Positions 3,440 through 62,620 are shown, counted from the first letter of the stretch. The stretch: DNA of 64,000 nt from Candidatus Saccharimonadales bacterium (GCA_035758565.1 DASTXL010000002.1:275118-339117); one strand, 5' to 3'. Notes: a model not told the origin generated them from the letters alone. Numbers and translations are program-made.

Positions 3440-3549
3440 TCGTCGAAGCTTGCGCCACTACCTCGTTTTGCCCGTGGGCAAAAGCTTCGGTTTATGGCTA
3501 CGCTTCTCCTCTCAAGATTTTAAACAGCTACACTTGGTTTAAAATCTTG
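3440..3549 (-). repeat. structured tRNA 5' leader element, copy 1 (abuts tRNA-Lys UUU)
   Basis: Hairpin, then AGAGGAG, GCC, CGAAGC-hairpin(TTTTGCC/GGCAAAA)-CGAGG, GGCGCAAGCTTCGACGA, then tRNA +1. Confidence 0.75.
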
Positions 3550-3895: not shown

Positions 3896-4560
3896 AAAAT
3901 TGGCTCTTCTAGCTCGCTGTAACTTCGTTTTTTAAATTTATGCAAGCGGGCAGGGCGATGGCGCAAGCCTGTTAACTGCTGGGCGGTCGGCTCAATTATA
4001 TCCAAGGATAGAATTTTCTTTCTGAAGTTACGCTTGTCAACCGGGTGCCCTAAAATCACCTCGTAAACTTCTTGCAATTGGCTTAGTGTAAATAGTTTGG
4101 GTAAAAGCGAATAGGCCACATTGGAATAGCCAAGTTTGGCGCGCAACCTTTTGGTAGCGTAAGTCATAATAGAGTCGTGGTCAAAAGCAAGATCTTTGAC
4201 CCCTTTTTTTATACTCAGAATTTCAACTCCCGGCTGCAGGTGCTTTAACTTATCAATCGGAGCTAAAGCGAAATAGGCGACGCTTATAATATGTCCTCTT
4301 GGATCGCGCTTGGGATTGTCGAACGTGTATAGCTGTTCCATGAACAATCCACTAACACTGACCTTGTGTTTTAAAATTCGTTCTGCCGCTTCGGCGGTAG
4401 TTTCTTTTTGCCACAAAAAACCACCAGGCAAAGAAAGTTTGTCTTTGCCAGGAGACTGATCGCGTTTAACCAGCACAACTTTTAAGTTGCTGTCGTCGAT
4501 AGTAAAAACAGCCACATCGACAGTTATTTCTGGATTCGCTTTTGGCGGTCGTTGATCCAT
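3892..4560 (-). CDS. nrtR: Nudix-related transcriptional regulator (NrtR-like: Nudix domain plus C-terminal winged helix)
   Basis: Nudix-like fold (LPGGFLWQKETTAEAAERILKHKV), C-terminal wHTH-like region, divergent from pnuC-nadR. Start taken at MDQRPP. Confidence 0.65.
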   Translation of the reverse strand: MDQRPPKANPEITVDVAVFTIDDSNLKVVLVKRDQSPGKDKLSLPGGFLWQKETTAEAAERILKHKVSVSGLFMEQLYTFDNPKRDPRGHIISVAYFALAPIDKLKHLQPGVEILSIKKGVKDLAFDHDSIMTYATKRLRAKLGYSNVAYSLLPKLFTLSQLQEVYEVILGHPVDKRNFRKKILSLDIIEPTAQQLTGLRHRPARLHKFKKRSYSELEEPIF

Positions 4561-10882: not shown

Positions 10883-12067
10883 ATGGGTGAATCAGATCAA
10901 AATCGGCGTCTCTATAGTATCGAGGGTGGCAAGCCCGATTCCATAAATGTGTCGAACACCTATGAAGAACTAGAAGACAGAAGCGTGCGCCTGGAATCGG
11001 TGGTGTTGGCGATCGAGCACCACCACGGCGAAGAGCAAATTGACAGGCTCGGGGTAACGACCAGGTTCTTACGGAACGGTTTTTTGATGATGCAAGAACT
11101 TGCTCATAGCGGCGGCCATAGATCCCTGTCTGATATATCGAATGAATTTGCGACTGCCTACGCCTTGGCAGCCCCGCAGCAAGATCAATCCGAGGCTTAT
11201 AACCGGCTAATGAAAAGCAACGCCGAAGCCTTGCACGAACTGCGAGAAGCGATGTTTGAACCTGAAGCCCAGTTTGTTGCTGACTATCCTCAAGGCGATT
11301 GGAGCGATCGAGAGCTAAAAGAAGCCGTGTTTGACGGCATCGGTCAGTCGGCGGCGATTTTAAGATTAATACTGCCCCAAAACGAAGGCGAAGAAACTTC
11401 GGCTTATTTAGCGCGCTGCAAAGATTTTATGCAGCGTTCGATTGATAGCATTCGCGAAGAGAGCGGCAAGGCAGACGAGGCGATATCGCTAATAAAAAAC
11501 GCCGATGAAATCATAGATGCGCTCGAGAGATTGGAGGTTAGGCCAGAAACTCGGTATGATCGAGGCTTAACTCTTTTAAGAATGGCAGTGTCAATGGTTG
11601 TTGGACTAGCCCGCGAGCCTAAGCAGAATCCTCTTACCTTTGCGCAGGCACAGATTCAGCAATTCGACAAACTTCCGGGCGAGCAGGGACGGCGAGCGGA
11701 GTCTATGCGCTTATTTGACTCTTTAGAATTCCTAGAAGAAACATACGATGAACTTGCCAGGTCAAACGACCCAGAAGCTGATGCTGTCCGCCACCGGGCA
11801 TTTTTAGAAAAGGAATTTTCAAGCGAAACTTTTGCTAACCCTGAAACCGAGAAAGACTTGCGTAAAATTCTCCACCATTCTTACGAAATACTAAAAATCT
11901 TAGCTGGCCCAGAAGCAGCAAATCACGACGACTTAATAGAGGTGATTAACAGGCTAAAGATAATTTTTTTACATCAAGGAGCAAGAATTACCAACCCTGA
12001 CGGGGTGGAAGCAGGCCACTTAAGATACTTGGCTTGGCAAGATTTTCCCGAGCCCGAATCTAAATAA
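10883..12067 (+). CDS. hypothetical protein (394 aa, acidic, helical)
   Basis: Long ORF in an operon-like position; no domain recognised. Confidence 0.4.
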   Translation: MGESDQNRRLYSIEGGKPDSINVSNTYEELEDRSVRLESVVLAIEHHHGEEQIDRLGVTTRFLRNGFLMMQELAHSGGHRSLSDISNEFATAYALAAPQQDQSEAYNRLMKSNAEALHELREAMFEPEAQFVADYPQGDWSDRELKEAVFDGIGQSAAILRLILPQNEGEETSAYLARCKDFMQRSIDSIREESGKADEAISLIKNADEIIDALERLEVRPETRYDRGLTLLRMAVSMVVGLAREPKQNPLTFAQAQIQQFDKLPGEQGRRAESMRLFDSLEFLEETYDELARSNDPEADAVRHRAFLEKEFSSETFANPETEKDLRKILHHSYEILKILAGPEAANHDDLIEVINRLKIIFLHQGARITNPDGVEAGHLRYLAWQDFPEPESK

Positions 12068-12092
12068 AAGAACTCCCAAAATAGAGTTCTTT

Positions 12093-12117
12093 TGGTGGGG
12101 CTGGTTGGATTTGAACC
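12093..12117 (-). repeat. duplicate of the 3' terminal 25 nt of tRNA-Ile2 (T-arm half, acceptor, CCA)
   Basis: tggtggggctggttggatttgaacc is identical at 12093-12117 and 12138-12162. Confidence 0.85.
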
Positions 12118-12137
12118 CGACTATGATAATGAAGTTT

Positions 12138-12213
12138 TGGTGGGGCTGGTTGGATTTGAACCAACGACCAATCAGTTATGAGCCGACTGCTCTAACCCCT
12201 GAGCTACAGCCCC
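12138..12213 (-). tRNA. tRNA with CAU anticodon, probably tRNA-Ile2 (lysidine)
   Basis: 76-nt cloverleaf, loop CTCATAA. Variable/T region TTGGTCGTTGGTTCAAATCC resembles E. coli ileX. tilS is present in the window. Confidence 0.7.
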
Positions 12214-12266
12214 TCGTCACAACGACAGAACTAGTATAACAGATAGCCTAAGGTATAATAATCCTT

Positions 12267-12716
12267 GTGCTTAGCAATTACACAAAATTTTTAAACAACC
12301 CCAAAATAAAGCAATTGGCGGATGTTAGGAATATCGCCCTTTACGTTTTTTGTTTAATTGTTCTAGCTATAACATGGAGCGGGGTTAAAACTCTTCAGAA
12401 TAATTACGAGCTGCAAAAGAAGATATCAACACTTAAGCAGCAAAATCAGGTTTTGCGCCTCCAGAATGAAAATACAGCACTGCAAAACCAATATTACCAA
12501 ACTAACGAATATTTAGATTTGGCGGCCAGGCAGGACCTGGGCTTAGCGGCTCCTGGCGAGAAGGTCTTATTAATTCCTAAGACTGTTGCCATGAAGTACG
12601 TTGATCAAACAGTCGCTGGTAGCACACAGTCAGCGAACCAAAGCGATCAGCAGTCGAAACATATTCAAAACCTGGAAGCCTGGCGGGATTTTTTACTGGG
12701 CCGCAAACCCCTATAA
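12267..12716 (+). CDS. FtsB/DivIC-like septum formation initiator
   Basis: N-terminal TM then a coiled coil (LQKKISTLKQQNQVLRLQNENTALQ); GTG start. Confidence 0.5.
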   Translation: MLSNYTKFLNNPKIKQLADVRNIALYVFCLIVLAITWSGVKTLQNNYELQKKISTLKQQNQVLRLQNENTALQNQYYQTNEYLDLAARQDLGLAAPGEKVLLIPKTVAMKYVDQTVAGSTQSANQSDQQSKHIQNLEAWRDFLLGRKPL

Positions 12717-12749: not shown

Positions 12750-12816
12750 TACTAATTGATTCTACTTTTAAGCAAGGGAAAGGTAGTAGCCACAATTTGC
12801 TAAAGCATTTTGGGGT

Positions 12817-12923
12817 CCCCACAAAATCAGCGAAGCGTATTTTGTGGGGTAGAGGAGCAGCCTAACCGTAAACCGAAGCTTTTGCTGAAAAGCAAAACGA
12901 GGTAACGGCGCAAGTTGCGACGA
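12817..12923 (+). repeat. structured tRNA 5' leader element, copy 2 (abuts tRNA-fMet)
   Basis: ccccacaaaat...attttgtgggg hairpin, AGAGGAGCA, CGAAGC-hairpin(GAAA loop)-CGAGG, GGCGCAAGTTGCGACGA. Confidence 0.75.
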
Positions 12924-15375: not shown

Positions 15376-15452
15376 TGGTAGCAGCGACTGGATTCGAACC
15401 AGTGACCGCAGGCTTATGAGTCCTGTGCTCTAACCAACTGAGCTACGCTGCC
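15376..15452 (-). tRNA. elongator tRNA-Met(CAU)
   Basis: 77-nt cloverleaf very similar to E. coli metT (GGC.. GTAGCTCAGTTGGTTAGAGCAC); encoded CCA. Confidence 0.85.
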
Positions 15453-15471
15453 ACAAAAAAGTACAAAACTT

Positions 15472-15497
15472 GTTCTAACCAACTGAGCTACCCTGGC
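15472..15497 (-). pseudogene. orphan tRNA 5' fragment (acceptor 5' strand plus D-arm) fused to leader copy 3
   Basis: GCCAGGGTAGCTCAGTTGGTTAGAAC follows the leader end GCGACGC and stops in the D-arm. Confidence 0.6.
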
Positions 15498-15610
15498 GCG
15501 TCGCAATTTACGCCTCTGCCTCGTTTTGCTATTCGCAAAAACTTCGGCTTGTGGCTAGATTGCTCCTTACAAATTTTACAAGCAAGACAATCACTTGTCT
15601 TGTAAAATTT
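15498..15610 (-). repeat. structured tRNA 5' leader element, copy 3
   Basis: Hairpin with agacaagtgattgtcttgct apex, AAGGAGCA, GCC, CGAAGT-hairpin-CGAGG, GGCGTAAATTGCGACGC. Confidence 0.7.
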
Positions 15611-32143: not shown

Positions 32144-32258
32144 TCGTCGGAATTTGCGGCTTTTCCTCGTTTTGCGGTTCCGCAAAAGCTTCGGTCTAAG
32201 CCTAGATTCCTCCTCTCAATTTAACAAAAATTGCTAAAGCGGATTTTTGTTAAATTGG
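32144..32258 (-). repeat. structured tRNA 5' leader element, copy 4
   Basis: Hairpin, AGAGGAGGA, GGC, CGAAGC-hairpin-CGAGG, GCCGCAAATTCCGACGA. Confidence 0.75.
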
Positions 32259-34773: not shown

Positions 34774-34890
34774 ACGTCCTCCCGTACGCCATTATCTCGT
34801 TTTGCCGCAGTAGCGTCAAAAACTTCGATTTATGGCTGCGGTCGTCCTCTCAATTTTGCAAAATCAGCGTAAGATGATTTTGCAAAATTG
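34774..34890 (-). repeat. structured tRNA 5' leader element, copy 5 (divergent 3' end)
   Basis: Hairpin, AGAGGACGA, GCC, CGAAGT-hairpin-CGAG, GGCGTACGGGAGGACGT. Confidence 0.7.
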
Positions 34891-36199: not shown

Positions 36200-36313
36200 T
36201 CGTCGAAGCTTGCGGCCTTGTCTCGTTTTGCCTGCTCGGCAAAAGCTTCGACCTTGGCCTAGGCTTCTCCTCTAAAATTTGTGAGCAAGACAACTACTTG
36301 CCTCACAAATTTT
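36200..36313 (-). repeat. structured tRNA 5' leader element, copy 6
   Basis: Hairpin with aggcaagtagttgtcttgct apex, AGAGGAGAA, GGCC, CGAAGC-hairpin-CGAG, GGCCGCAAGCTTCGACGA. Confidence 0.75.
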
Positions 36314-36372
36314 GTTGCTACTGACTGGCCTAATGGCCACATCGTCTTCAGCTTATCGCTACTCCTCCTCTA

Positions 36373-36468
36373 CCCCACAAAATAAATTTTGCAGGGAAAC
36401 CCTAGCTCTATAGGAAAAAGAGCAGCGAGCTTGGTTTTGCTTAAGGCAAAACTCGGCTTTGCCGACGA
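36373..36468 (+). repeat. degenerate orphan copy of the leader element (no tRNA follows)
   Basis: ccccacaaaataaattttgcaggg hairpin ... AAGAGCA ... GGTTTTGcttaagGCAAAAC ... GCCGACGA. The opposite strand carries AGAGGAG next to the same hairpin. Confidence 0.4.
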
Positions 36469-44751: not shown

Positions 44752-44866
44752 AAAAATTTGCGAGACAAGTAATTGTCTTGCTCGCAATTTTTAAGAGGAG
44801 CAACCTAGCCTAAAAACGAAGCTTTTGTCTATAGACAAAACGAGTTATAGGCGCAGGTTGCGACGA
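44752..44866 (+). repeat. structured tRNA 5' leader element, copy 7
   Basis: Hairpin with agacaagtaattgtcttgct apex, AGAGGAGCA, GCCT, CGAAGC-hairpin-CGAG, AGGCGCAGGTTGCGACGA. Confidence 0.75.
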
Positions 44867-51553: not shown

Positions 51554-52603
51554 ATGCGCAAACTTAGTTTTAAGCGACTTGGTCTTTATGCCGCTATTCC
51601 TGCTGTTATTGTGGGTGTAGCTGCTATAGTTTCTGCCGCTGCTACGTTTGGCCCGAGCCGCCCAACTTTTACTTGGGCAGACCCAGCTAACTACATCACT
51701 TTCAACTCCATCACGGATAATCCGACATGGGGTGATGAACGTCAGCTTTTGAAAACTCGTGATTTAAACTCTAGCACCAGTGCATATTCGACCTCTACTC
51801 AGGTTACTGATGGTGAAGACGTTGTTTTGGCTGTTTACTTCCACAACAACGCCGCTACCTTTCTTGGCCTGAGCGCAACCAACACCCAAGTTAAAATAGT
51901 TCTTCCAAGCGGCTCTGCTTCCACCCAGACCGCCACGGCCTATATCTCTGCCGACAATGCTAATCCAGCTCAAGTTTGGGCCACAGCCGAGTTAACTAAC
52001 GCTCAGCCTTTCAGCCTTACCTATGAGCCTGGTACCGCCAAGCTTTACACTAACTACGTTAACGGCATCGCTTTGAGCGACAACGTTGTTAATGGTGGTA
52101 CTCTAGTGGGCAGCAACGGTCCCGACGGCAAGGTTCCTGGTTGTGCTCAGTTTAGTGGCTACGTAACTATTCGCGCTAAGGTCCATGTACAACCAGTGCA
52201 ACAAACCTTTAGCGCTACCGCCACCGCTAGCGCCACCGCCAGTGCTTCTGCCAAGGCTACTTGTCCGAACACCGGCGCAAGTGCCAGCGCTACAGCTAGC
52301 GCCTCAGCTTCTGCAACAGCCACAGCTACATCTAACGTATCTCAGGCCGACGCTCAGTCTAAGGCCCAGAACCAGGCCCAGCAACAGGCCAACGCCAACG
52401 CCCAGGCTAAAGCTAAAGCAGATGCCCAGGCCAAGGCCAACGCCTCTGTCAATTGTTCGACTCCGGTAACGACCACAACTTCTACACCTAAGCCAACGGC
52501 TTTGCCGAACACTGGTGCGGGTGACGTGGTTGGTCTGTTCAGCGGCATCAGCACTGTTGGCGCCGCCGGCCACTACATCGTTAATCGCCGTAACCGTCGC
52601 TAA
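51554..52603 (+). CDS. LPXTG-anchored surface protein
   Basis: Signal peptide, low-complexity Ala/Ser/Thr/Gln stalk, C-terminal LPNTG, hydrophobic stretch, then RRNRR. Confidence 0.75.
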   Translation: MRKLSFKRLGLYAAIPAVIVGVAAIVSAAATFGPSRPTFTWADPANYITFNSITDNPTWGDERQLLKTRDLNSSTSAYSTSTQVTDGEDVVLAVYFHNNAATFLGLSATNTQVKIVLPSGSASTQTATAYISADNANPAQVWATAELTNAQPFSLTYEPGTAKLYTNYVNGIALSDNVVNGGTLVGSNGPDGKVPGCAQFSGYVTIRAKVHVQPVQQTFSATATASATASASAKATCPNTGASASATASASASATATATSNVSQADAQSKAQNQAQQQANANAQAKAKADAQAKANASVNCSTPVTTTTSTPKPTALPNTGAGDVVGLFSGISTVGAAGHYIVNRRNRR

Positions 52604-52811
52604 GCCTTAAGTAGCTGATCTTGTGGATAAGCATTTGCGCTTTACGCAAGATTATGCTAGGGTGGGTTTAGTACGAAGAGTAATCGTGACTGACCGCTCT
52701 TAAAAACAAAATTTAGCCATTAATCCCTCGAACACGTGGTGAGGACGTGCCTCGGGGGATTTTTGGTGCCAGAGAGGAGTTAATGTGATAAAATCTCTCT
52801 GTTGTTTTAAT

Positions 52812-52918
52812 CAGAAACATAAGACAAGTAATTGTCTTGCTTGTGTTTCTGGAAGGAGCAATCTAGCGCTAGGCGAAATTTTATTTATAAAATAGAGCAA
52901 GCGTGTAAATTGCGACGT
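52812..52918 (+). repeat. structured tRNA 5' leader element, copy 8 (variant hairpin 2)
   Basis: Hairpin with agacaagtaattgtcttgct apex, GAAGGAGCA, GCGC, CGAAATTTTAT-tta-ATAAAAT, GCGTGTAAATTGCGACGT. Confidence 0.7.
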
Positions 52919-53133
52919 GGTCCCATCGTCTAGCGGTTAGGACACCGGGTACCTTCACCCCACAAAACAAGTTTTGCGGGGACCCCGATCATTCCGGCAA
53001 CAGGGTGAGAACTGCCATTTGGCAGTTCGCAAGGCCACAGGCGCGACGGCGCCGAGGAGGGCCCGACCGAATTTTCAGCAGAAAATTACGGGTGGGTCGA
53101 TTCCGAATCGAACGTATACAATTAGTCGACAAT
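52919..53133 (+). pseudogene. disrupted tRNA-Glu copy: intact 5' half, then degenerate pieces of the remainder separated by hairpin-containing inserts
   Basis: 52919-52950 is identical to 53134-53165. CATTCCGGCAACAGGGT and GGGTCGATTCC match later parts of tRNA-Glu. Confidence 0.55.
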
Positions 53134-53208
<75 letters not shown>

Positions 53209-53210
53209 CG

Positions 53211-53241
53211 AAAAAACCCGATTCTTGCAGTCGGGTTTTTT
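53211..53241. terminator. bidirectional intrinsic terminator
   Basis: aaaaaacccga-loop-tcgggtttttt between tRNA-Glu (+) and the KGG gene (-). Confidence 0.7.
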
Positions 53242-53258
53242 CGTTGGTCAAGCAGGAA

Positions 53259-53462
53259 TTATCTGGTGCGCCGGGATGCTTTGCCGCCTAGCCGCCCAGC
53301 ACGAGCGGCTTTTTCGCGATCGTTCTTGAAGTTGCCGCCGCTGGCCGAGCCGCCGCGGCTGGCAATTTCGCGCTGTTTCTTAGGGTCCATCGAAGCAAAG
53401 CCTCGATTACTCGTTCCGCTGCGCTGGCCAGCAGTGTCATCATCATCGTTGTTATTTGCCAT
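53259..53462 (-). CDS. KGG-repeat general stress protein
   Basis: GFASMDPKKQREIASRGG ... AGRLGGKAS. Confidence 0.65.
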   Translation of the reverse strand: MANNNDDDDTAGQRSGTSNRGFASMDPKKQREIASRGGSASGGNFKNDREKAARAGRLGGKASRRTR

Positions 53463-62499: not shown

Positions 62500-62620
62500 A
62501 AATTTTCTAAGCCAGCGAGCGGCTTTGCCGACTCGAGCGCTTAGGAAATTTAGAGGAAGAACAAAGTCGTAAGTTGAAGTCTTGATATTCAAAACGAAAC
62601 AACGGCGCAAGTTCTGACGA
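62500..62620 (+). repeat. structured leader element, copy 9, abutting the tmRNA 5' end
   Basis: Long hairpin, AGAGGAAGA, GTCG, TGAAGTCTTGAtatTCAAAACGA, CGGCGCAAGTTCTGACGA, then GGGGCTGA. Promoter TTGGAA-18-TATAAT at 62420-62449. Confidence 0.7.

Follow-up and report, generated by a model that had tools for sequence, protein, structure and literature searches.

The tRNA-Glu(UUC) gene of a Candidatus Saccharimonadales bacterium is preceded by a broken copy of itself, and this copy is interrupted by a short structured sequence, designated here as element E. The stretch of DNA analyzed, hereafter the window, is 64,000 nucleotides (nt) long (GCA_035758565.1 DASTXL010000002.1:275118-339117). The broken copy contains two inserts, and sequence alignment and covariance modeling identify the second as a complete member of a widespread and conserved structured family, E. 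Family E is most likely a non-coding insertion element, whose surviving insertions pair a disrupted relic with an intact tRNA gene. As for the locus itself, there is somewhat more than an even chance that it is an insertion composite derived from a promoter-leader-tRNA-Glu ancestor, with E as a selfish element that targets loops.

Sequence, Fold, and Distribution of Element E

The 183-nt insert was compared by BLAST with the loci fetched for comparison (these loci and the metagenome contigs are labeled L with a number below). Positions 52997–53034 match L011 at 89%, and in L011 the matching stretch is located downstream of its tRNA-Glu, within a copy of the 3' part of the tRNA. Copies of E were gathered by scanning sequence collections with a 20-base pattern, GTGAGAACTGCCA(1–4 nt)GGCAGTT, and at least 120 metagenome contigs were matched.

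E consists, in order, of GUGAGAAC, hairpin Pa, GUUCGCAAGG, hairpin Pb in two main forms, a G-rich linker, and hairpin Pc. Its length is ~85–110 nt, and the copy in the window is 92 nt long. Among 41 copies of variant 1, 98.8% of the pair cells are paired. Changes on both sides of a pair are found in 185 cells, compared with 46.6 in shuffles and 11–22 in controls with slid partners. The variant 2 alignment, composed of 17 copies and the window copy, contains 13 pairs with compensatory changes. Pa shows no variation in the collected copies, which is a consequence of the collecting pattern.

Covariance model R2 finds one copy of E in the window, at 53002–53088 (34.6 bits, E-value ~9e-6), and this copy retains all invariant columns of the variant 2 alignment. 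Its Pa is an 8-bp helix (53009–53028 including the loop), the core hairpin of Pb is GGCGC-GACG-GCGCC, and Pc is CCCGACCGAAUUUUC-AGCA-GAAAAUUACGGGUGGG. The first-pass annotation of this stretch, made from the sequence alone, had placed an insert of ~80 nt with a hairpin here. The hairpin is present, and the insert is now delimited as the 92-nt E (Table 1).

The two ends of E (GUGAGAAC... and ...GUGACC) are not inverted repeats of each other. The junction bases differ between copies, and the flanking repeats are host tRNA sequences of variable length. E has no match in Rfam 15, even at lenient E-values. The strict pattern gave no hit in IMG/VR, and blastn found none in phage or plasmid collections. 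By-eye inspection only was used for K-turn, loop E, C/D-box, hammerhead, and hepatitis delta virus (HDV)-like motifs, and it revealed no convincing match. Neither the sequence of E nor the leader described below was found in the searchable literature, a search that did not extend to subscription-only papers.

Twenty-six E loci share a protein with named loci, and for 20 of them the best match is from Saccharibacteria (three at 72–80% identity). A scan of 80 pgk loci (855 kb) with R2 finds E in L011 only.

Five contigs (L088, L102, L139, L144, and L166) carry the Pa-Pb part followed by a second E-like unit (e.g., ...CGGG-GUGAGAAAGUCC...). Two E-like units are present in one insertion, and E is therefore modular.

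Insertion Context of E

The context was examined in 127 instances of E among the matches listed. In about 100 of the 127, an intact tRNA is found within ~200 nt on the same strand, and throughout the listed instances the neighboring intact tRNA is on the strand of E. It can be of 16 amino-acid types. Two arrangements are seen: the intact tRNA starts 130–190 nt downstream of E in pattern A, and ends 77–90 nt upstream of E in pattern B. The partial copy matches the neighboring intact tRNA in every aligned case among the matches listed.

E interrupts a loop of the tRNA copy in sense orientation. The loop is most often the T-loop, and the D-loop and the anticodon loop (including 37/38) are also used. 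One flank of the split copy is long, and the other is only ~8–20 nt. In pattern A, nothing is missing from the 5' part before E, and only ~8–20 nt of tRNA sequence come after E. In pattern B, only positions ~43–55 precede E, and the 3' part continues to CCA and a second terminator. The truncated side bears an inverted segment of the adjacent tRNA, which is the reverse complement of tRNA positions 42–~66 in pattern B and a sequence like GGAATCGAACC in pattern A with T-loop insertion. The window is a pattern A case in which E interrupts the T-loop of the broken tRNA-Glu copy; the intact tRNA-Glu begins 130 nt after the start of E.

The insertion in loops, including the canonical position 37/38, and the constant sense orientation are what would be seen if E were a true intron, spliced by itself or by an enzyme, and if the E-bearing copy yielded a tRNA. 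The distribution also resembles that of mobile archaeal tRNA introns (as described in PMC10714607, citing Fujishima 2010), and tRNAs of Patescibacteria are known to bear group I introns (PMC13011429). In the E-bearing copies, however, the tRNA is incomplete at one end. When E was deleted in silico from 28 instances without a neighboring tRNA (33,733 boundary combinations, evaluated with ARAGORN), a complete tRNA was restored in 1 of the 28, namely in L190, whose E is truncated. Archaeal-type splicing was rejected on this ground, as no complete tRNA remains after the removal of E except for that case. A group I intron was also rejected: no model hit is obtained in 52600–53300 at E-values up to 10, and the last exon base of the 215-nt unit is identical to its last intron base, so that the U / G rule cannot hold. 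It is highly improbable that E is an intron.

E is also seen in hairpin loops of a few non-tRNA hosts (L175/L185, L090/L118, L129/L143, and L200). None of these hosts has a match to an Rfam family. A 22-nt 5' piece of the host is duplicated in L175. RNase P RNA was considered as the host in L129 and L143 and was rejected, since no Rfam match is found at E-values up to 0.01.

Anatomy of the tRNA-Glu Locus

The partial tRNA-Glu, which amounts to the 5' two-thirds of the tRNA, directly adjoins copy 8 of a leader family, and the intact tRNA-Glu is located 215 nt further downstream (Table 1). As proposed in the first-pass annotation, the sequence after leader 8 is a repeat of the 5' half of tRNA-Glu. 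The repeat had been given as 32 nt and extends to 33 nt: 52918–52950 is identical to 53133–53165 at a spacing of 215 nt, and it covers position -1 and tRNA positions 1–32.

After the first base of the anticodon loop, the partial copy departs from the tRNA. A 38-nt insert (52951–52988), here called insert 1, contains the hairpin that had been reported at this site. The next piece, TCATTCCGGCAACAGGG (52989–53005, 17 nt), matches 53168–53184 at 16 of 17 positions and extends from the anticodon loop to the T-stem, in agreement with its former assignment to the 3' strand of the anticodon stem and the variable region. The T-arm-like piece noted before the intact tRNA, GGGTCGATTCC (53094–53104), matches 53184–53194 at 10 of 11 positions, which is near chance when taken alone, but it is collinear with the other pieces. 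The 3' strand of the acceptor stem is missing from the partial copy. Both the Pa-type hairpin and the CCCCACAAAA...GGGG hairpin are present in it. The predicted fold of 52989–53114 has a z-score of -4.5.

The 182 nt between the 33-nt repeats encode no recombinase, and the only open reading frames (ORFs) of at least 50 amino acids (aa) overlap the RNA features and run into the tRNA. Upstream, the position of candidate promoter P1 matches that of the promoters upstream of other leader copies, which are likewise accompanied by P0-type hairpins. The window contains 12 tRNA genes and one transfer-messenger RNA (tmRNA) gene in total.

Table 1. Features of the tRNA-Glu locus and leader copies in the window.
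Feature	Position	Strand	Evidence or description
Candidate promoter P1 (leader and partial copy)	52766..52794	+	GTGCCA, 17-nt spacer, TAAAAT, TG before -10; consensus scan
Variable upstream hairpin P0 of leader 8	52812..52851	+	Inverted repeat with 12-nt arms, 92% complementary
Leader copy 8	52839..52918	+	Leader model R1, 63.1 bits; ends at the first base of the partial tRNA
Partial tRNA-Glu, positions 1–32	52919..52950	+	Acceptor 5' strand, D-arm, anticodon-stem 5' strand, first loop base; identical to 53134–53165
Insert 1, anticodon loop	52951..52988	-	Inverted leader 5' module (by alignment): P0-type hairpin CCCCGCAAAAC..GTTTTGTGGGG and degenerate TAGAGGAG box
Partial tRNA-Glu continued, ~positions 35–50	52989..53004	+	Anticodon-loop end, anticodon-stem 3' strand, variable region, T-stem 5' start
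Element E, variant 2	53005..53096	+	GUGAGAAC, Pa, GCAAGG, Pb, GAGGAGGG, Pc; R2 hit
T-loop/T-stem 3' remnant of the partial copy, ~positions 55–62	53097..53104	+	TCGATTCC
Fold-back, inverted T-arm fragment	53105..53113	+	GAATCGAAC; complementary to the preceding remnant and to 53185–53193; reverse complement of tRNA positions 52–60
Candidate internal promoter P2	53115..53122	+	TATACAAT; -10 hexamer TACAAT at 53117–53122; ends 11 nt before the tRNA
Intact tRNA-Glu(UUC)	53134..53208	+	ARAGORN; Rfam tRNA model, 63.9 bits
Intrinsic-terminator-like hairpin after the tRNA	53208..53244	+	14-bp arms, 100% complementary, then T run
Other leader copies	12838..12923; 44781..44866; 62539..62620	+
Other leader copies	3440..3525; 15498..15582; 32144..32229; 34774..34863; 36200..36286	-

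Two contigs from one Logan run cover the margins of the locus. L083 (SRR25158471) spans the LPXTG gene and leader 8 and reaches 29 nt into the partial copy, so that its end falls within the repeat; L082 begins at window position 53179. The junction of the leader and the partial copy is not peculiar to one assembly, because an independent Logan contig carries it. Exact-protein look-ups for strain variants of the locus returned one sample only. The 215-nt unit could be an assembly artefact, that is, a mis-join at the 33-nt repeat, and both Logan contigs of the one run carrying this genome do break in or near the repeat. However, breaks at a 33-nt repeat and at a conserved tRNA would be expected of an assembler with k=31, and the middle part holds a complete, well-formed E in the same order of parts as three unrelated contigs. 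An artefact is scarcely credible here.

Homologous Loci and a Candidate Internal Promoter

The three contigs, L094, L149, and L184, align with the window in the order of their parts, and two of them best match a Saccharibacteria locus. The common order is tRNA-Glu 1–53, E, GATTCC(C), an inverted T-arm fragment, a (G)TTTACAAT / TATACAAT box, 8–12 nt, tRNA-Glu, and a terminator. The counterpart of the fold-back in these contigs is GGAAACGAACC / GGAATTGAACC. In the window and in all three contigs, the partial copies share lineage-specific substitutions with their own intact tRNA. The comparison across carriers shows the same layout with the exception of the 38-nt insert, which is absent from the three contigs. 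Their anticodon loops are intact; therefore, insert 1 is a later event, specific to the lineage of the window.

The TACAAT box is positionally conserved in the three contigs. In pattern A as a whole, 23 of the 34 distinct loci have a match of at least 5/6 to TATAAT ending 8–14 nt before the intact tRNA, compared with 12% of shuffles. Because the layout including the TACAAT box is conserved in L094, L149, and L184, the intact tRNA-Glu probably has its own promoter, with TACAAT at 53117–53122 as the predicted -10 hexamer.

The intact gene had been described as lacking a leader of its own. This holds for the family of leader 8, as leader model R1 finds no leader in 52951–53133 at E-values up to 10, but a conserved -10-like box is located 11 nt upstream of the gene. 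Unless it had an internal promoter, the tRNA had also been thought to depend on release from a precursor of ~320 nt. Such processing is probably unnecessary, given that the TACAAT box is conserved in three loci and similar boxes are enriched in 23 of 34, and the reading in which the precursor is the sole source is weakened by the putative promoter at 53117–53122. The absence of a leader is normal in the window, because four of its tRNAs (Met-a, Pro-CGG, Gly, and Arg-TCG) have none; three of these are found behind ordinary TGnTATAAT promoters.

The -10 boxes of pattern A end 8–14 nt before position +1. Primary transcripts would carry leaders of ~1–7 nt and be nearly leaderless. A degenerate second leader in the insert, suggested by GAGGAG at 53055–53060 and a P3-like hairpin, was considered and rejected: R1 is blank there, and these features belong to E.

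Leader Family and Insert 1

The leader copies were modeled with R1, a covariance model built in the present analysis from the leader family. The window contains nine copies of ~85 nt. They end exactly at position +1 of seven tRNAs, of the partial tRNA-Glu, and of the tmRNA, all of which are RNase P substrates or lookalikes. In the consensus fold, a GAGGAG box and CGACGA enclose a long irregular hairpin of 22 pairs, 13 of which show compensatory changes. The leader gives no match in Rfam 15, either at gathering thresholds or at lenient E-values. It is lineage-restricted, because it is absent from 25 other Saccharibacteria pgk loci.

Leader 8 has the GAGGAG box, the hairpin with covarying helices P1–P3, and a CGACGT end adjoining 52919, which agrees with its identification in the first-pass annotation. 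Its apical hairpin has been exchanged for an AU-rich one, and its score is the lowest among the nine copies (63.1 vs. 77–98 bits). The family is also found in L155, L122, and L176. In L122 and L176, the leader adjoins an E-bearing partial copy, and the intact tRNA is behind a TATAAT or TACAAT box, as in the window. In L155, the leader (77.7 bits) adjoins the intact tRNA, and E is located downstream. The scores are 63 (window), 35 (L122), and 32 (L176) bits before E-bearing copies, compared with 77–98 bits before intact tRNAs.

Insert 1 contains a 26-nt match of 88% to 36372–36397, with further matches to 12812–12850. Reverse-complemented, it can be aligned with the beginning of the fMet leader and with an orphan leader start, in both the P0 hairpin and TAGAGGAG, and this alignment supports the likeness of the hairpins that had been noted before. 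On sequence grounds, insert 1 is identified as the leader's 5' module, copied in inverted orientation. The orphan leader start (36352–36402, minus strand) is its closest relative. It consists of a P0-type hairpin and TAGAGGAGGAG, with neither a full leader hairpin nor a tRNA behind it.

These comparisons bear on the two origins offered earlier for the locus, an insertion with a direct repeat or a tandem duplicate decayed through hairpin insertions. An origin by insertion and duplication is retained, while decay by hairpin insertions is not, since the second insert is the conserved E, found at the same T-loop position elsewhere. An ordinary tandem duplicate of tRNA-Glu decayed by chance insertions, or a one-off insertion of 215 nt, would be in line with the non-functional state of the partial copy, which has no acceptor 3' strand, and with the partial tRNA copies without E elsewhere in this genome (Met-c and Met-a, see below). 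Yet the second insert belongs to a family with at least 120 instances and a fixed context, the same tRNA-Glu layout is seen in three other contigs, and the first insert is a templated copy of a leader module. Chance decay or a one-off event is very unlikely.

Origin of the Locus

The ancestral gene probably consisted of the leader and tRNA-Glu. An event associated with E would have split it into a relic (leader, 5' copy, and E) and an intact gene served by a short promoter newly gained. E would land in the loops of tRNA genes and occasionally in other hairpin-forming non-coding sequences. The disruption of a single-copy tRNA gene would be lethal, and only events that leave or create an adjacent intact copy would survive. 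The intact copy would have its own promoter if the 5' part is duplicated, and its own terminator if the 3' part is duplicated. In the window, tRNA-Glu is probably transcribed from the internal TACAAT promoter with a leader of a few nucleotides, and it may also come from transcripts that start at the leader promoter, read through, and are cut by RNase P at 53134. Together, the leader, the partial copy, and E would form a relic transcript, and leader 8 is the most degenerate of the leader copies. The relic would later have gained a second insertion, the inverted leader hairpin module in the anticodon loop. The inverted tRNA fragments suggest template switching or fold-back repair at the stem-loops of tRNA. 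The degenerate leaders, the secondary insertion, and the altered E motif in the window argue for relaxed constraint.

Several facts weigh against this origin. Mobility of E has not been observed, and no enzyme is associated with it. No clean pair of filled and empty sites was found; between L115 and L001 (80% protein identity), the flanks are unalignable. Long partial copies are 100% identical to the neighboring tRNA in 23 of 37 distinct loci of pattern A and 17 of 38 of pattern B. The window copy has CCACAGG instead of the near-invariant CCGGAAG and may be inactive. The collecting pattern fixes Pa, and the breadth and invariance of Pa are not independent evidence. Candidate promoter P2 is a consensus match without a good -35 and was missed by a generic scan. 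The independent contigs leave the middle of the locus (52951–53133) uncovered. Finally, the covariation of E and the near-identity of the partial copies fit equally well with a selected, functional RNA composed of the partial copy and E.

This last alternative is the main rival. The partial copy and E could be a functional chimeric small RNA kept by the host as a regulator or decoy, as a source of tRNA fragments, or for binding a protein. For its expression it would use a tRNA promoter and, here, the leader, and the intact tRNA would merely be its evolutionary source. The helices of E are kept by compensatory changes across many contigs, and the junction nucleotides of E are invariant. In most loci, the identity of the long partial copies with the neighboring tRNA is complete or at least 95%, and the copies share lineage-specific substitutions with it. 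Small, streamlined genomes have kept the arrangement, which is seen with tRNAs of 16 amino-acid types. Between the inverted tRNA fragments, E would lie enclosed in a long helix, and this is suggestive of a designed fold. On the other hand, leaders before E-bearing copies score lowest, and the window copy has an extra insertion in the anticodon loop and substitutions in a near-invariant motif of E. In the downstream arrangement, E is placed after the terminator without its own promoter. L001 seems to keep only a remnant, and no function is readable from the sequence. A functional chimera is a possibility to be taken seriously, if not the probable one.

The remnant in L001 is located at ~4229–4330, where no E is detectable. 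An inverted T-arm fragment (GGAGCGAACTCC) and a ATCGTGAAG motif follow the terminator of tRNA-Glu there. It may be a decayed E unit.

T-loops and anticodon loops with symmetric stems are reportedly the classic crossover sites of integrases that target tRNA genes. The partial copies could accordingly be att-site scars of integrative elements targeting tRNA loops. E would then be a recombination site or the end of a mini-cassette, whose cargo has been lost with 183 nt left. The junctions in T- and anticodon loops correspond to such crossover sites, and the 33-nt direct repeat of a tRNA segment is bounded by a loop, ending at the first base of the anticodon loop. Gene fragments of tRNA derived from integrase events are common in prokaryotes, according to PMC9897764. 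The three E units of L107 with their small ORFs, bounded by 9-nt tRNA-Lys 3' ends and with an HTH_7/HTH_38 protein at one end, also fit this explanation, as do the E units on both sides of one tRNA in L147. However, neither a recombinase nor an ORF is found between the repeats in the window or in ~100 other loci, and the distance from the partial to the intact copy is only 80–190 nt. The window duplicates the 5' part, not the 3' part usual for integrases. E occupies the would-be crossover point with tRNA flanks on both sides, and it is absent from the viral, phage, and plasmid collections searched. An integrase scar is unlikely.

The array of L107 is located at 11150–12700. Each of its three E units follows the 9-nt 3' end of tRNA-Lys and a terminator. 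A small ORF comes after each unit: one encodes a GNAT acetyltransferase, and two have no significant family match. The third E unit is truncated. A protein of 164 aa with only HTH_7/HTH_38 domains adjoins the array, and the 14 kb of L107 covered contain no intact tRNA.

The integrase scar, the intron, random decay, and the assembly error are the weaker explanations, and one or more of the features tested contradict each of them. More tentatively, E could represent a new class of RNA-level mobile or catalytic element of Patescibacteria, similar to a small ribozyme or an intron, which would insert into the loops of tRNAs and other stable RNAs and be copied back to DNA, or a functional tRNA-fragment chimera with a role in epibiotic life. 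In either case, the layout of partial tRNA, fold-back, and intact tRNA would be the signature of its propagation.

Neighborhood of the Locus and Other Partial tRNA Copies

The pgk gene and its neighbors place the window in Candidatus Saccharibacteria, with a best pgk identity of 63%. The order of LPXTG protein, conserved motif, terminator, promoter, and tRNA-Glu is also seen in L001, L010, L011, and L012. The leaders of tRNA-Glu in these four loci are unrelated and ~75–135 nt long. The unit at 52633–52760 (plus strand) consists of a perfect DnaA-box-like sequence, TGTGGATAA, a conserved motif ending with TGACTGACCGCTC, and a terminator. In L001, L004, L010, L011, and L012, it is syntenic, lying after the LPXTG gene and before tRNA-Glu. 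The unit is a candidate for a small RNA or a regulatory site and matches no Rfam family. RNase P RNA was sought in the ORF-poor stretch at 48.8–50.1 kb and was not found there.

Two tRNA-Met genes of the window are accompanied by tRNA fragments. At Met-c (15376–15582, minus strand), the leader is followed by 27 nt from the 5' part of a different tRNA (GCCAGGGTAGCTCAGTTGGTTAGAACA) and, after a spacer of 18 nt, by an intact tRNA-Met. This tRNA-Met is flanked by an inverted repeat, CTTTTGTACTTTT / AAAAGTACAAAAG, and is followed by a AGGACTCATA remnant. Met-c is an analogue, without E, of the order of leader, broken copy, and intact tRNA. At Met-a (~12090–12213, minus strand), a direct copy of its own 3' end (29 nt, GTCGGGTTCAAATCCAACCAGCCCCACCA, one mismatch) is present 17 nt downstream, as an att-like fragment.

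Comparison with Known Systems

Bacterial 23S rRNA genes can contain intervening sequences (IVSs), which are stem-loop insertions of ~100 nt removed by RNase III without religation. E is similar to them in being a sporadic non-coding stem-loop insertion in the loops of stable RNAs. It is different in that a tRNA cannot tolerate an unligated cut, that E is found in non-functional copies only, and that no sequence relationship is seen.

Like miniature inverted-repeat transposable elements (MITEs), E is short, hairpin-rich, multi-copy, and non-coding, and it has no enzyme gene of its own. Unlike MITEs, it appears to have neither constant terminal inverted repeats nor a target-site duplication, it is inserted in a single orientation, it targets the loops of RNA genes, and it is accompanied by partial duplication of the host gene.

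The bacteria bearing E are not known to have a splicing endonuclease of the archaeal type. The mobile tRNA introns of Thermoproteales transpose and are found in many tRNA genes of one genome, as stated in PMC10714607 (citing Fujishima 2010). They resemble E in that a short, related, non-coding sequence is inserted in D-, anticodon, and T-loops in sense orientation only. They reside in complete genes and are cut by the splicing endonuclease at a bulge-helix-bulge, whereas E is found in truncated copies beside an intact gene and has its own conserved core of three hairpins. The group I tRNA introns of Patescibacteria (PMC13011429) occur in the same group of organisms and interrupt tRNA genes as well. 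However, they are longer, are inserted in the anticodon loop of complete genes, match the model, and are self-splicing, while E is 85–110 nt, lacks a group I core, and has partial hosts.

Fragments of tRNA left by integrases (e.g., PMC9897764) have in common with E a partial direct repeat of a tRNA beside an intact gene and junctions in loops with symmetric stems. In contrast, the E loci have only ~100–200 nt and no gene between the copies, and the 5' part may be the duplicated one. A structured element at the junction and inverted tRNA fragments are further differences.

The nearest analogues of E are archaeal mobile tRNA introns, integrase-derived tRNA fragments, and rRNA IVSs, but with each of them E is at variance in features that define it. 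The chance that E works by a new mechanism is a real one. As a defined RNA fold with covariation, E is suited to direct tests of self-cleavage, protein binding, and mobility.

If E is an insertion element as proposed, a sizeable structured non-coding family has been overlooked in genomes of the Saccharibacteria type, where a single strict pattern matches at least 120 contigs. E would account for many pseudo-tRNA fragments and broken tRNA calls in those genomes. The expression of tRNA-Glu in the window would not have to rely on the processing of a 320-nt precursor, and the locus would exemplify how an essential single-copy gene survives an insertion, through partial duplication and a new promoter or terminator. 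Archaea have mobile tRNA introns and split tRNAs, and E would then offer a counterpart to them in bacteria.

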